Virus record (IMG/VR): IMGVR_UViG_3300045988_031782
Source: a virus
DNA length: 5,758 nucleotides
Direction: 5' to 3' (one strand)
A program made the position numbers and the translations under genes. Below the pieces are notes generated by a model, which had not been told where the DNA came from, searched no databases, and worked only from the letters and a program-made list of their open reading frames with translations. Below, one piece after another: positions 2,571-4,754 of the stretch. The first letter of the stretch is position 1. Each line of letters starts with the position of its first letter.

Positions 2571-3560
2571 TCAAACTTTCGGTTCACGCCACTTTTGCTT
2601 TAGCTTGTCTTTTTCTTTCTGAATGTTGAGGTAAGTCTCGTAATCCACGCTTGTAGACTGTTCTAGATTGACCAAACTTTGTATTGCGCTGCGTCTGCGT
2701 CTGGCTCTAACCTCTCTCAGCTCGTCAGAATGTGCCTTAAAATAGCTTTCAGTGTCTTGGCTGGTGTCCTTATCTAGAATCTTATCAAAATAGCGTGGAG
2801 GCCTTTTCTCGCGTCCTCCTGCGCATATGATGCTATCTGTCTTTAAGATTTCATCTTTGTGTTCGTTTAGATACTTTTCGCCAATGCCTTTCGACATGAT
2901 TCGGAACTCTGGCTCTCTGCCTTCCATCCAGTATTTTGCCGCTTGCTCTGCACCTATGGCTTTCTTGTTGACGTATTGCGCCACGTATGCAAAGCTTCCC
3001 GGTTGTGCTGGTGAAAAGTCTATCATGCCCTTGCCCCAGATTTTTTGTAGCCACTCGCTTTTGAAATAGCTGTTGCCTTTTTGGTTTTTATACCATTGTG
3101 CATCCGGTGGCTTTAATCCGAATACTATGGCATGATAGTGTGGTCTTTTTGTTCTGTCGCCATATTCTGCCGCTAAAAAGTATTTTATCGGCTTCTTGTA
3201 TGCTTTCCGTAGACGTTTTAGAAATAGCTGCACGTCTCGCTTGCTTACTGTTTGACTTTGAATGCTTCTGTAGCCTTTGATGATTTCTCCGTACGGAATA
3301 TGTTCATCGTCATACGTCAGTGTTAGAAAAATCACATCGTCCCACTCTTTTGCCTCCAGCTCTATTCTTGTTGCCCATTGGTCTGCCATCTGTTTGCGGC
3401 AGTACTCGCATTTACCGCATGGTAACAATGCGAATTTTCCTTTTTTGATTCCGTCCATGATGTCCGTTTGAAGTCCTTGCTTTGTTAGGTTCTCCAGACT
3501 TCCCCACAGCTGCGGTTTTTTCGTGTCCATCTGGAATACTAATGGTTTTGTACATGGCAT
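2571..3560 (-). CDS. VP4: Replication initiation protein VP4 (HUH rolling-circle endonuclease, phiX174 A-like), 329 aa
   Basis: FLTLTY (motif I), RPHYHAIVFG (HUH motif II) and FAYVAQYVNKK (catalytic Tyr motif III) are in the canonical order, with CGKCEYCR upstream. I prefer ATG 3560 (N-terminus MPCTKPL, typical of Microviridae Rep). The track's GTG 3575 lies inside a hairpin stem. Confidence 0.93.
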   Translation of the reverse strand: MPCTKPLVFQMDTKKPQLWGSLENLTKQGLQTDIMDGIKKGKFALLPCGKCEYCRKQMADQWATRIELEAKEWDDVIFLTLTYDDEHIPYGEIIKGYRSIQSQTVSKRDVQLFLKRLRKAYKKPIKYFLAAEYGDRTKRPHYHAIVFGLKPPDAQWYKNQKGNSYFKSEWLQKIWGKGMIDFSPAQPGSFAYVAQYVNKKAIGAEQAAKYWMEGREPEFRIMSKGIGEKYLNEHKDEILKTDSIICAGGREKRPPRYFDKILDKDTSQDTESYFKAHSDELREVRARRRRSAIQSLVNLEQSTSVDYETYLNIQKEKDKLKQKWREPKV

Positions 3561-3567
3561 TTTTGTT

Positions 3568-3602
3568 ACCGGCACAAGCTTCCTTGTCTATCTTGTGCCG
3601 GT
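3568..3602 (-). promoter_or_regulatory. Perfect 11-bp inverted repeat (13-nt loop), 7 nt upstream of the Rep ATG
   Basis: The minus strand reads ACCGGCACAAG-ATAGACAAGGAAG-CTTGTGCCGGT-AACAAAA-ATG. A GAGGTG Shine-Dalgarno-like element sits 3 nt upstream of the 5' arm, and an AAGGAAG sits in the loop. Confidence 0.7.
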
Positions 3603-3635
3603 TGACACCTCGCTTCCTTTATATATTAACTTGTT

Positions 3636-3653
3636 GTAGTAGTAGTAGTAGTA
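3636..3653. repeat. Trinucleotide microsatellite (GTA)6 on plus, (TAC)6 on the coding strand
   Basis: Six perfect tandem GTA units read directly. They are flanked on both sides by TGTTG (TTGTTG-(TAG)6-TGTTGAAAC). Confidence 0.95.
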
Positions 3654-3654
3654 G

Positions 3655-3673
3655 TGTTGAAACTGTTGAAAAC
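3655..3673 (+). repeat. Iteron cluster A: 2 tandem copies of TGTTGAAA(A)C
   Basis: TGTTGAAAC at 3655 and TGTTGAAAAC at 3664, read directly. Confidence 0.85.
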
Positions 3674-3716
3674 TCGTTTTTTTAACGTTTCTACGTTTAT
3701 TTATTGCCTTTTTGCT

Positions 3717-3756
3717 TGTTGAAAACTTTGTTGAAAACTTGTTGAATTGTTGAATG
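3717..3756 (+). repeat. Iteron cluster B: 4 tandem copies (TGTTGAAAAC x2, TGTTGAATT, TGTTGAATG)
   Basis: Copies start at 3717, 3729, 3740 and 3748 (spacing 12, 11, 8 nt). The cluster abuts the 17-nt palindrome. Confidence 0.85.
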
Positions 3757-3773
3757 TTCGTCATTATGACGAA
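3757..3773. promoter_or_regulatory. 17-nt palindrome TTCGTCAT-T-ATGACGAA between iteron clusters B and C. Candidate origin stem-loop or operator.
   Basis: The arms TTCGTCAT and ATGACGAA are perfect reverse complements around a single T. As a hairpin this gives a 6-bp stem with an A/T loop (ATTAT on plus, ATAAT on minus). Confidence 0.6.
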
Positions 3774-3791
3774 TTTCTTTGTGCAACTTGT

Positions 3792-3821
3792 TGTTGAAAA
3801 CCTGTTGAAAGTGTTGAAAAC
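3792..3821 (+). repeat. Iteron cluster C: 3 tandem copies (TGTTGAAAAC, TGTTGAAAG, TGTTGAAAAC)
   Basis: Copies start at 3792, 3803 and 3812. The last copy is half of a small hairpin, GAAAAC-TCAA-GTTTTC (3816..3831). Confidence 0.85.
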
Positions 3822-3861
3822 TCAAGTTTTCCACATTCTTTATTTTTTGGATTATTGTTAC

Positions 3862-3888
3862 AAAAAAGGGGGATGTTTTCCATCCCCC
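3862..3888 (-). terminator. Strong rho-independent terminator after VP2
   Basis: The minus strand reads GGGGGATG-GAAAA-CATCCCCC followed by TTTTTTG. That is an 8-bp G:C-rich stem and a 6-T tract, starting 8 nt after the VP2 stop. Confidence 0.85.
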
Positions 3889-3896
3889 TTCCTTTC

Positions 3897-4754
3897 TTAG
3901 TCTCCTCTGTATGCGTTGAATGCGTCCATGTTTGGCATGATTGGCACTCTCTGGTTGTATTTTTTGAAGTTTCCTGCTGTGTCTTTGGCTGCTTTGCCAG
4001 CCTTTTCTGCTGCTTTTTTGGCTGCTTTACCAGCTCCCGCAAGGCCTGCACCTAATTTGCTAGCTGCATAGGTGTACTGTTGTGCCTGTTTTGCGCTCGA
4101 GGTTGCCAGCTCGCTCGCTGCCTGTTCCCAGCTTTTTGCACTCTTAAGCTGTTTTGCGCTGGTGGCTTGTTTTGCTAGCTGTAAGTATTTGTCTGCTAGC
4201 TCTGCCGTGTTGTTGCCGTATTCGTACATTGCGCTTACGCTTGCAGCCTGTGCGCTCTGCTGGTTATAACGTTGGCTTCCAATGCTTGCAGATGCTCCCG
4301 ATGGTGCGCTTGTTGCGCCGTTGGTCGCTGCTAAGATAGGATTGATGCCCGCTGCGATCATGTCCTTTACGGTGTCCTGATAGGCTGTCCCGCGCATTTC
4401 CTTTTGAAACGCTCGTTCTGCTGCTGCTTCTGCGCTGTTGTACTTCTTGGCGCTTGCTTGGCTTCCAGCATTTGCGAGGTTGCTCAGCAGTCCGCTCATC
4501 ATTTGCAGTGTGTTTGCGGTGTTTACACTGCTCTGATTTCCGAACATTGTGACGCCTGTTGGCGTGCTGATTTGTGTTGCTCCGATTTGCTGCGGTCCTG
4601 TTATGCTGCCTGTTGTGGTCTCGCTGCCTGTGCTGCTTTCGCTGCCGGCTCCTTGGCTGTTCTTGGCGCCGCTCTGGTTACTGCTTGTTATGATGCTTGT
4701 TAGCATGCCTAGTCCTTGCATGAGGGATGGCAAAAGCTTTAATAACGTCTCCAT
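3897..4754 (-). CDS. VP2: Minor capsid / DNA pilot protein VP2 (H-like), 285 aa
   Basis: NSAEAAAERAFQKEMRGTAYQDTVKDMIAAGINPILA matches the VP2 hallmark (A...R.F...M..TAYQ..V.DM..AG.NP.L). The flanks are long Ser/Thr/Gln/Ala-rich low-complexity sequence. The N-terminus is hydrophobic (METLLKLLPSLMQGLGMLTSIITS). It lies directly downstream of VP1. Confidence 0.85.
   Translation of the reverse strand: METLLKLLPSLMQGLGMLTSIITSSNQSGAKNSQGAGSESSTGSETTTGSITGPQQIGATQISTPTGVTMFGNQSSVNTANTLQMMSGLLSNLANAGSQASAKKYNSAEAAAERAFQKEMRGTAYQDTVKDMIAAGINPILAATNGATSAPSGASASIGSQRYNQQSAQAASVSAMYEYGNNTAELADKYLQLAKQATSAKQLKSAKSWEQAASELATSSAKQAQQYTYAASKLGAGLAGAGKAAKKAAEKAGKAAKDTAGNFKKYNQRVPIMPNMDAFNAYRGD

Follow-up and report, generated by a model that had tools for sequence, protein, structure and literature searches.

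A probable host oriC-like DnaA-recruiting module in the intergenic region of a gut gokushovirus genome

The 5758-nt virus record IMGVR_UViG_3300045988_031782 of IMG/VR (hereafter the window, i.e., the whole stretch of DNA that was analyzed, numbered on the strand presented) is a complete-looking gokushovirus genome in which every recognizable gene lies on the minus strand. The gene set comprises VP1, VP2, VP4, VP5, VP3 and an M15 endolysin; dnaA and dnaN are absent. The sole large intergenic region (3576-3896) separates VP2 from VP4, the gene for the HUH replication initiation protein (Rep), and contains, upstream of the VP4 start, an array of direct repeats that the original prediction, made from the window alone, described as iterons bound by Rep. 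The analysis presented here indicates that this array, together with the adjacent TAG tract and AT-only run, forms an oriC-like module (3618-3835) that is probably a mimic of, or was captured from, the dnaA-dnaN origin of the host chromosome and would recruit the host DnaA protein. The features of the locus and of the rest of the genome are collected in Table 1.

The heptamer TGTTGAA starts on the plus strand at 3655, 3664, 3717, 3729, 3740, 3748, 3792, 3803 and 3812 (span 3655-3818) and once more at 2295. These 10 matches in the whole window compare with 0.93 expected, and none of 200 dinucleotide shuffles reaches 10. Five of the copies (3664, 3717, 3729, 3792 and 3812) are the exact 10-mer TGTTGAAAAC, and the palindrome TTCGTCAT-T-ATGACGAA is present as described. 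The inventory of the original prediction is thus reproduced, along with the location of the array upstream of the Rep gene in the VP2-VP4 intergenic space, and its view of a DNA-level, non-coding, conserved module of the origin type is upheld by the results below. It overlooked that all genes are on the minus strand, and it missed the inverted box at 3827-3835, the (TAG)6 tract and the AT-only run. The extra copy at 2295-2304 (TGTTGAATTG, inside the 80-aa open reading frame) is a single occurrence and not a widely shared k-mer; since about 0.9 copies are expected per genome, it is attributed to chance. On the coding (minus) strand, the repeats read GTTTTCAACA, and the repeat TGTTGAAAA becomes TTTTCAACA, one mismatch from the relaxed DnaA-box consensus TTWTNCACA.

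Table 1. Features of the window, with positions on the strand presented
Feature	Position	Strand	Remarks
VP1, capsid	spans window ends	minus	
M15 peptidase endolysin	1761-2162	minus	Pfam 2e-22; phrog_894
80-aa open reading frame		minus	contains the extra repeat copy at 2295-2304
VP4, HUH replication initiation protein	2571-3575	minus	Pfam REP_ORF2-G2P 1e-20; phrog_942 replication initiation protein 3e-108
Perfect 11-bp hairpin ACCGGCACAAG/CTTGTGCCGGT	3568-3602		overlaps the start and the ribosome-binding region of VP4; flanks the module at its AT-rich end
AT-only run TTTATATATTAA	3618-3629		candidate DNA-unwinding element; the trios lie between it and the boxes
Near-invariant phage motif (T)AACTTGTTG	3628-3636	plus	joins AT run to trios
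(TAG)6, six perfect DnaA-trios	3637-3654	plus	5'-TAG-3' (3'-GAT-5' in the literature); abuts first repeat
Boxes 1 and 2, tandem, trio-proximal	3655-3672	plus	TGTTGAAAC, TGTTGAAAA
Spacer, 44 nt	3673-3716		variable except AACG/ACG islands
Cluster B, boxes 3-6	3717-3725, 3729-3737, 3740-3748, 3748-3756	plus	TGTTGAAAA, TGTTGAAAA, TGTTGAATT, TGTTGAATG
Palindrome TTCGTCAT-T-ATGACGAA	3757-3773		inside the 35-nt spacer between clusters B and C
Cluster C, boxes 7-9	3792-3800, 3803-3811, 3812-3820	plus	TGTTGAAAA, TGTTGAAAG, TGTTGAAAA
Inverted tenth box	3827-3835	minus	TTTTCCACA on the plus strand; exact match to TTWTNCACA; 9-mer found in 97 of 121 genomes
GC-rich hairpin AAGGGGGATG/CATCCCCCTT	3866-3890		T-runs either side; terminator-like; just past VP2 stop, at the outer edge of the module
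VP2, DNA pilot protein	3897-4754	minus	PHROGs pilot/minor tail protein families; annotated VP2 in relatives

The basal unwinding system (BUS) of bacterial origins combines DnaA-trios with an AT-rich element and with tandem DnaA boxes that adjoin the trios (PMC6669920, PMC8287927). The trio consensus is 3'-GAT-5', with a minimum of three consecutive trios (PMC8287927, PMC6669920), and rules for the spacer as well as a required 5' tail have been described (PMC8287927). The published search criteria, under which a box has ≤2 mismatches to TTATCCACA or to the species motif and lies 0-16 bp from the trios (≤4 for an optional second box), match the window, and none of 2000 shuffles gives a match. 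Six perfect trios are present; box 2 (reverse complement TTTTCAACA) shows 2 mismatches to TTATCCACA and lies 9 bp from the trios, and box 1 (reverse complement GTTTCAACA) shows 3. The polarity is that of the BUS as well: read 5' to 3', the trios precede the TGTGGATAA-type boxes, with or without a spacer, and the AT-rich DNA-unwinding element (DUE) lies 5' of the trios, in the window, its relatives and the host origins alike; the trio-box polarity is identical in 15 of 15 aligned relatives. The B. subtilis scaffold oligonucleotide oHM558 (TAGTAGAAGTAATAGTAGGGCCTGTGGATTTGTGGATAAGT) reads 5'-TAGTAGAAGTAATAGTAG-GGCC-TGTGGATTT-GTGGATAA-3' (PMC8287927 supplement), and the plus strand of the window, 5'-(TAG)6-TGTTGAAAC-TGTTGAAAA-3', agrees with it in strand, order and box spacing. 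One related module (L061) reads (TAG)5-GGGC-TGTGGAAAA-GTTGAAAAC, i.e., includes the GC spacer. Similar words are on record for bacterial origins: CAACA-type boxes beside (GAT)6 in Clostridium botulinum, and TTTTCAACA boxes in Ruminococcus albus (PMC8287927 supplement). By membership, the element is not a chromosomal oriC, being part of a gokushovirus genome.

A pattern drawn from the phage module, TAGTAGTAG-N0-6-GTKGAAA-N1-2-GTTGAAA, was scanned against viral contigs and against bacterial contigs representing one genome per species. The bacterial scan identifies at least 120 loci or genomes, overwhelmingly from Oscillospiraceae, Ruminococcus, Acutalibacteraceae and other Clostridia, plus Selenomonas. 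Of the 120 bacterial loci listed, 111 lie within 1.5 kb of dnaA, dnaN or both (both genes in 82, a single one in 29). In five loci, Pfam searches place DnaA and the beta clamp (DnaN) on the flanks of the site, in the order dnaA-boxes-trios-AT-dnaN that is found in B. subtilis. Collinearity between the host origins and the phage module extends over about 200 nt, with 64-68% identity and the same succession of clusters and spacers: the pair of boxes nearest the trios is followed, after some 33-50 nt, by 3-4 direct boxes and, after about 35 nt more, by a cluster of 3-5 boxes. The octamer TGTKGAAA occurs in the host loci at 15.5 per kb beside the BUS versus 0.54 per kb elsewhere, a 29-fold enrichment, mostly in one orientation; the host oriC boxes are 521 direct versus 167 inverted. 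The commonest form of box 1 in the phage relatives is GTGGAAAA (66 of 119), and that of box 2 is GTTGAAAA (110 of 119); the host oriCs have this same pair. Given the host-origin match, the collinearity and the TGTKGAAA enrichment, the comparison argues that the supposed iterons are the DnaA-box dialect of Oscillospirales-type origins and that the module is a mimic of, or captured from, such an origin. Since the TGTTGAAAA box variant is used at these chromosomal origins, the likely hosts are Oscillospiraceae, Ruminococcus and other gut Clostridia, an assignment for which the mimicry is the sole basis. No prophage forms are present among the 120 bacterial loci listed; the only entry with microvirus genes is L254 (CAVKUS010000079.1, 5739 nt), a free contig in a metagenome-assembled genome bin and a close relative of the window (VP4 95%, module 93% identical). 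This contig is binned to the 'Bacteroides sp. CAG:545' genome; in view of the Clostridia-type mimicry, the placement probably reflects faulty binning and not a link to the host.

Used as a blastn query, the intergenic region retrieves 37 GenBank gokushovirus records (human, pig, mink, raccoon, monkey and turkey gut), most of which align only over window positions 3618-3820, at 73-83% identity. Outside the module, there is no other DNA-level alignment with most relatives, and the sharing of k-mers across the whole genome peaks within it. The module is common to at least 121 microvirus genomes, and the scan of viral contigs matches at least 120 stretches, almost all of 5.3-6.2 kb; no microvirus-sized contig matches a version of the pattern with canonical boxes, and a blastn search of the module against PLSDB plasmids yields no match. 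Because over 120 independent contigs of circular length, obtained in several studies and from several animal hosts, have the module, the possibility of an assembly chimera is rejected.

Alignments of the module were built first for 15 relatives and then for 114 unique modules. Conservation is seen in the motif TAACTTGTTG, which links the AT run to the trios, in the TAG repeats and in every repeat cluster, while the spacers and the palindrome drift; across the 114 unique modules, the box columns, clusters B and C included, are at least 90% conserved. The TAG tract is the best-conserved part of the region and is kept in all relatives, which carry 3-6 trios, and a spacer of 4-5 nt (e.g., GGGCT) separates trios from boxes in 92 of 119 related modules and 113 of 119 hosts. 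An AT-only stretch of about 10-14 nt lies at the same place in all relatives, and this region has the lowest GC content of the window (0.32); the host oriCs have a longer AT-rich stretch at this place, 83% AT over 30 nt. Box positions of the window are occupied in relatives by TGTGGAAAA (reverse complement TTTTCCACA) or TGTGGATAA (reverse complement TTATCCACA), i.e., by canonical DnaA boxes. For example, Microvirus CA82 (L308, NC_015785) has the same module at 3680-3830 with canonical distal boxes, TGTGGATAA / TTATCCACA, which suggests a different host. In the CA82 record, the module lies under an annotated 'p4 non-structural protein' coding sequence that is probably not a gene. Within the otherwise variable first spacer, window positions 3684-3695 hold small conserved islands, AACG ... 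ACG, which have no counterpart in the host origins.

One addition to the host plan is the near-invariant motif next to the trios. The sequence CTTGTTGTAG adjoins the trios in 112 of 118 phage modules versus 0 of 118 host oriCs, and few k-mers of the whole genome are shared as widely. The 9-mer AACTTGTTG recurs at two box junctions within the module (3736-3744 and 3785-3793); it is lacking in Microvirus CA82. The motif at 3628-3636 is a candidate site for a phage factor, e.g., a nick or recognition site of VP4. One might suppose that the whole module is a functionless relic, host origin DNA acquired by illegitimate recombination and carried passively, a view with which the collinearity with host origins would agree. 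Such passive carriage is the least probable of the explanations considered: at least 121 viral genomes of 5-6 kb have retained the module although their proteins diverge deeply, its boxes and trios are conserved while the spacers drift, and it carries invariant additions that are specific to the phages.

The orientation and position of the module vary among the relatives. Among 121 genomes classified, the TAG strand is the coding strand in 85, with the module downstream of VP4; it is the non-coding strand in 34, the window among them, with the module between VP2 and VP4, and also in 2 genomes with the module downstream of VP4. The 85 genomes of the downstream type encode VP4 and VP1 proteins that are only 33-42% and 35-57% identical, respectively, to those of the window, and use the same repeat words. 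A rule that the AT-rich end always faces VP4 was tried and dropped; the distances in the downstream group range from 120 to 695 nt. Thus, the conservation in relatives to which the original prediction looked is present for the motif, with drifting spacers, and does not extend to orientation and position.

These observations bear directly on the core of that prediction, namely, that the repeats are iterons of the HUH Rep (VP4) that position a nick site for rolling-circle replication (RCR) in the style of CRESS (circular Rep-encoding single-stranded) DNA viruses and RCR plasmids. The repeats adjoin the Rep gene and, all in the same orientation beside a palindrome, resemble a CRESS origin; furthermore, the conserved motif includes AACTTG, which equals positions 2-7 of the phiX174 origin core, a likeness that is a lead only. 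The match may be incidental because the motif recurs at box junctions (3736, 3785), and classical gokushoviruses have no consistent counterpart of it. Rep-specific iterons co-vary with Rep in geminiviruses and CRESS viruses. In the microviruses analyzed here, by contrast, the repeats stay constant while the Reps diverge to 33-42% identity, and their words and layout are identical to those of the host oriC boxes, with canonical DnaA boxes (TGTGGAAAA, TGTGGATAA) interchanging at the same positions. The palindrome is poorly conserved across the 114 modules and is for this reason rejected as a stem-loop with the nick site; it is terminator-like on the plus strand, has no counterpart in host oriCs and is lineage-specific. 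In known Microviridae, the packaged strand is the coding strand; on the assumption that this holds here, an element tied to nicking should not occur in both orientations, as it does (85 versus 36 genomes). The composition of the coding strand at four-fold degenerate sites is the same in both orientation groups and gives no sign of a flip of the packaged strand, a test of low power, given that gokushovirus lineages differ in this skew in any case: the window and L057-L070 are strongly A-rich and T-poor (A 0.34-0.56, T 0.09-0.14), phiMH2K and CA82 are like the window, and Chp2 and SpV4 are T-rich. The virion strand of single-stranded DNA phages is usually quoted as T-rich, the opposite of the coding strand of the window. 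Taken together, the host-origin match, the divergence of Rep and the free orientation make binding of these repeats by VP4 quite improbable; the original prediction did list a host regulator as an alternative, and this part holds up.

The original prediction also listed a complementary-strand origin. In the form considered here, pairing between inverted boxes of the single strand that enters the cell would create a double-stranded DnaA box flanked by single-stranded trios, where DnaA would nucleate a primosome, as in the DnaA-dependent 'ABC primosome' hairpin of plasmid R6K. Single-stranded DNA phages need a priming signal, and box 9 and the inverted box of the window constitute an 11-nt inverted repeat that could fold into a hairpin; 3664-3686 can also pair with 3813-3835 (23 nt, 78% complementary). 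Such a signal must, however, reside on the packaged strand, yet both orientations occur; the inverted box is absent from many relatives; and the predicted folding of the single strand is only marginally above that of shuffles, with z of about -2 for either strand. A complementary-strand origin is accordingly very improbable.

Another possibility is that the boxes bind DnaA without any origin function, either as a datA-like sink that titrates DnaA and shuts off host initiation or as a DnaA-ATP-responsive operator of VP4 or downstream genes. DnaA is a known transcription factor, and datA is a known sink; ten boxes per genome on a high-copy molecule would suit titration, and a place in the only large intergenic, promoter-bearing region would suit an operator. 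However, six perfect trios and an AT run in the exact BUS register would be superfluous for either role, yet these are the most conserved parts of the module, and its orientation flips relative to the genes that it would regulate. Moreover, no sigma-70-like promoter was found in 3450-3950, in a scan that is weak for Clostridia. A sink or an operator is therefore considered unlikely.

The probable explanation thus remains an oriC-like module that recruits host DnaA. The identity of the element, its architecture and strand geometry, the conservation that tracks boxes and trios, and the match to host origins are read directly from the sequences, and they are compatible with the following course of events. 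Host DnaA-ATP would fill the box arrays on the double-stranded replicative form, spread as an oligomer from boxes 1 and 2 along the strand that carries (TAG)6, as in the BUS, and melt the adjacent AT-rich stretch; the opened bubble would then serve phage replication. One option is loading of the host helicase, after which the replicative form would be copied in the manner of an oriC minichromosome, by the theta mode or for maintenance. Another option, alone or combined with the first, is that single-stranded DNA at the phage-specific TAACTTGTTG is passed to VP4, an idea prompted by the near-invariance of this phage-specific motif, which stands where the AT run meets the trios. The free orientation and position of the module would follow from its action on double-stranded DNA.

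Several facts speak against this interpretation. The AT-only run is short, 12 nt versus about 30 or more in hosts, and the GC-rich spacer of about 4 bp is missing from the window, where (TAG)6 and TGTTGAAAC are 0-1 nt apart, depending on where the box is taken to start. At position 6, where the E. coli consensus has C, most of the boxes have A, and the comparison with host origins is the one argument that host DnaA would accept this substitution. The invariant TAACTTGTTG and the conserved AACG islands are not explained by DnaA. The classical gokushoviruses phiMH2K, Chp2 and SpV4 have no trio-and-box module and replicate without one, so that the module is an add-on to microvirus replication rather than a core part of it. 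Finally, the dnaA-dnaN half-origin alone is insufficient in B. subtilis. The same half-origin alone is insufficient for origin function in C. difficile (PMC7561715).

A bolder version of the scenario, which we regard as possible but doubtful, is that a widespread clade of gut gokushoviruses grafted a complete unwinding module, taken from the chromosome origin of its Clostridia hosts, onto a rolling-circle genome with an HUH Rep. The replicative form could then fire as an oriC minichromosome, with DnaA-dependent helicase loading and theta replication, and the DnaA bubble could expose TAACTTGTTG to VP4. If so, these phages might be carried in dividing hosts like plasmids, without integration. 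Should the nick site, in addition, move with the module, the 36 genomes with the inverted module, the window included, would package the antisense strand.

The surroundings of the module offer some additional observations. The hairpin at 3568-3602 encloses the GTG start of VP4 and has the likely ribosome-binding site, AAGGAAG, in its loop; it is kept in close relatives and might control the translation of Rep. Where the module of a relative occupies the other position, GC-rich (CG/CA)n tracts take the place of this hairpin. In L057, L062-L068 and L070, the module is flanked by alternating purine-pyrimidine GC-rich tracts, e.g., CGCGCGCACGCGCGCG, where the window has discrete hairpins (3568-3602 and 3866-3890); these tracts could adopt Z-DNA or hairpin structures and might be the joints at which a movable module recombines. 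An Rfam search of the window matched no known RNA family. The window phage encodes an M15 endolysin instead of only a single-gene lysis protein, which may indicate a host with a thick cell wall, consistent with the Clostridia host suggested by the module.

Modules of this kind are not confined to microviruses. The 39-kb siphovirus-like contig L100 (IMGVR_UViG_3300045988_134603), with Dit and Gp37-like tail genes, contains an oriC-like module at about 1750-2060, (TAG)3-GGGCG-GTTGAAAC-T-GTTGAAAA followed by at least 12 further GTTGAAA boxes, with no dnaA or dnaN nearby. A similar-looking module is present at about 2000-2313 of L115, a viral contig of 23.6 kb. Origin mimicry may thus be common among phages of these hosts and may extend to other phages, with the siphovirus-like contig already an instance.

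DnaA boxes in the theta origins of plasmids and phages and the BUS of chromosomes are already known. No description of a microvirus with a DnaA-trio/DnaA-box module turned up in a search limited to open-access papers and preprints, so that an earlier report elsewhere is possible, and the motif TTTTCAACA appears in the full-text literature in primer lists only. If the interpretation is correct, this would be the first indication that Microviridae, the textbook rolling-circle replicators with a Rep nickase, also recruit host DnaA via a full unwinding module, and the expected replication biology of a major group of gut phages would change. The copied DnaA-box dialect and origin layout would permit sequence-based host assignment for the abundant uncultured gokushoviruses of the human and animal gut, and the module suggests a mechanism for the long-term non-integrative persistence of gut microviruses. 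It would also be a natural minimal BUS variant of about 220 bp under independent selection, informative on the requirements for DnaA-driven opening in Clostridia.

Among the known systems, the BUS is the closest: in incC of B. subtilis (boxes 6 and 7, GC spacer, trios, AT-rich DUE; Richardson 2016; PMC6669920; PMC8287927), the same elements occur in the same order and on the same strand, with at least three 5'-TAG-3' trios, two abutting TGTGGA-type boxes on the trio strand and further boxes beyond. The phage module differs in that it resides on a 5.8-kb single-stranded DNA phage, has a short AT run, lacks, in the window, the 4-5-nt GC spacer, and holds TAACTTGTTG between the AT run and the trios. 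The dnaA-dnaN origins of Oscillospiraceae, Ruminococcus and Acutalibacteraceae (L206, L185, L222, L228, L295, and L247 from Hominimerdicola aceti) share with it TGTTGAAAA, sometimes TGTGGAAAA, and the same (TAG)n; they are, however, 64-68% identical to it, compared with 73-83% among phage modules, have an inverted box before cluster B, and lack TAACTTGTTG. Theta origins such as P1 oriR, F, pSC101, RK2 and R6K also recruit host DnaA via DnaA boxes, and they combine a few such boxes with iterons for their own Rep, with no DnaA-trio array; in contrast, the array of the phage module is entirely of the DnaA type, and the phage's own initiator is an HUH nickase. The phiX174/G4 origin is a 30-nt sequence, CAACTTG^ATATTAATAAC..., inside gene A. 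The Rep families are related, and the conserved phage motif likewise has AACTTG beside an AT-rich run, although only 6 nt (3628-3633) are shared with the CAACTTGATATTAATAACACTATAGACCAC-like site of 30 nt, and these lie outside VP4. With the origins of CRESS viruses and RCR plasmids, the module has in common direct repeats near an inverted repeat and a Rep gene, but it shows no co-variation with Rep, its stem-loop is not conserved, and its orientation is not fixed. The datA locus of E. coli is a DnaA-titrating cluster of boxes outside oriC, without trios or a DUE, whereas the phage module keeps both.

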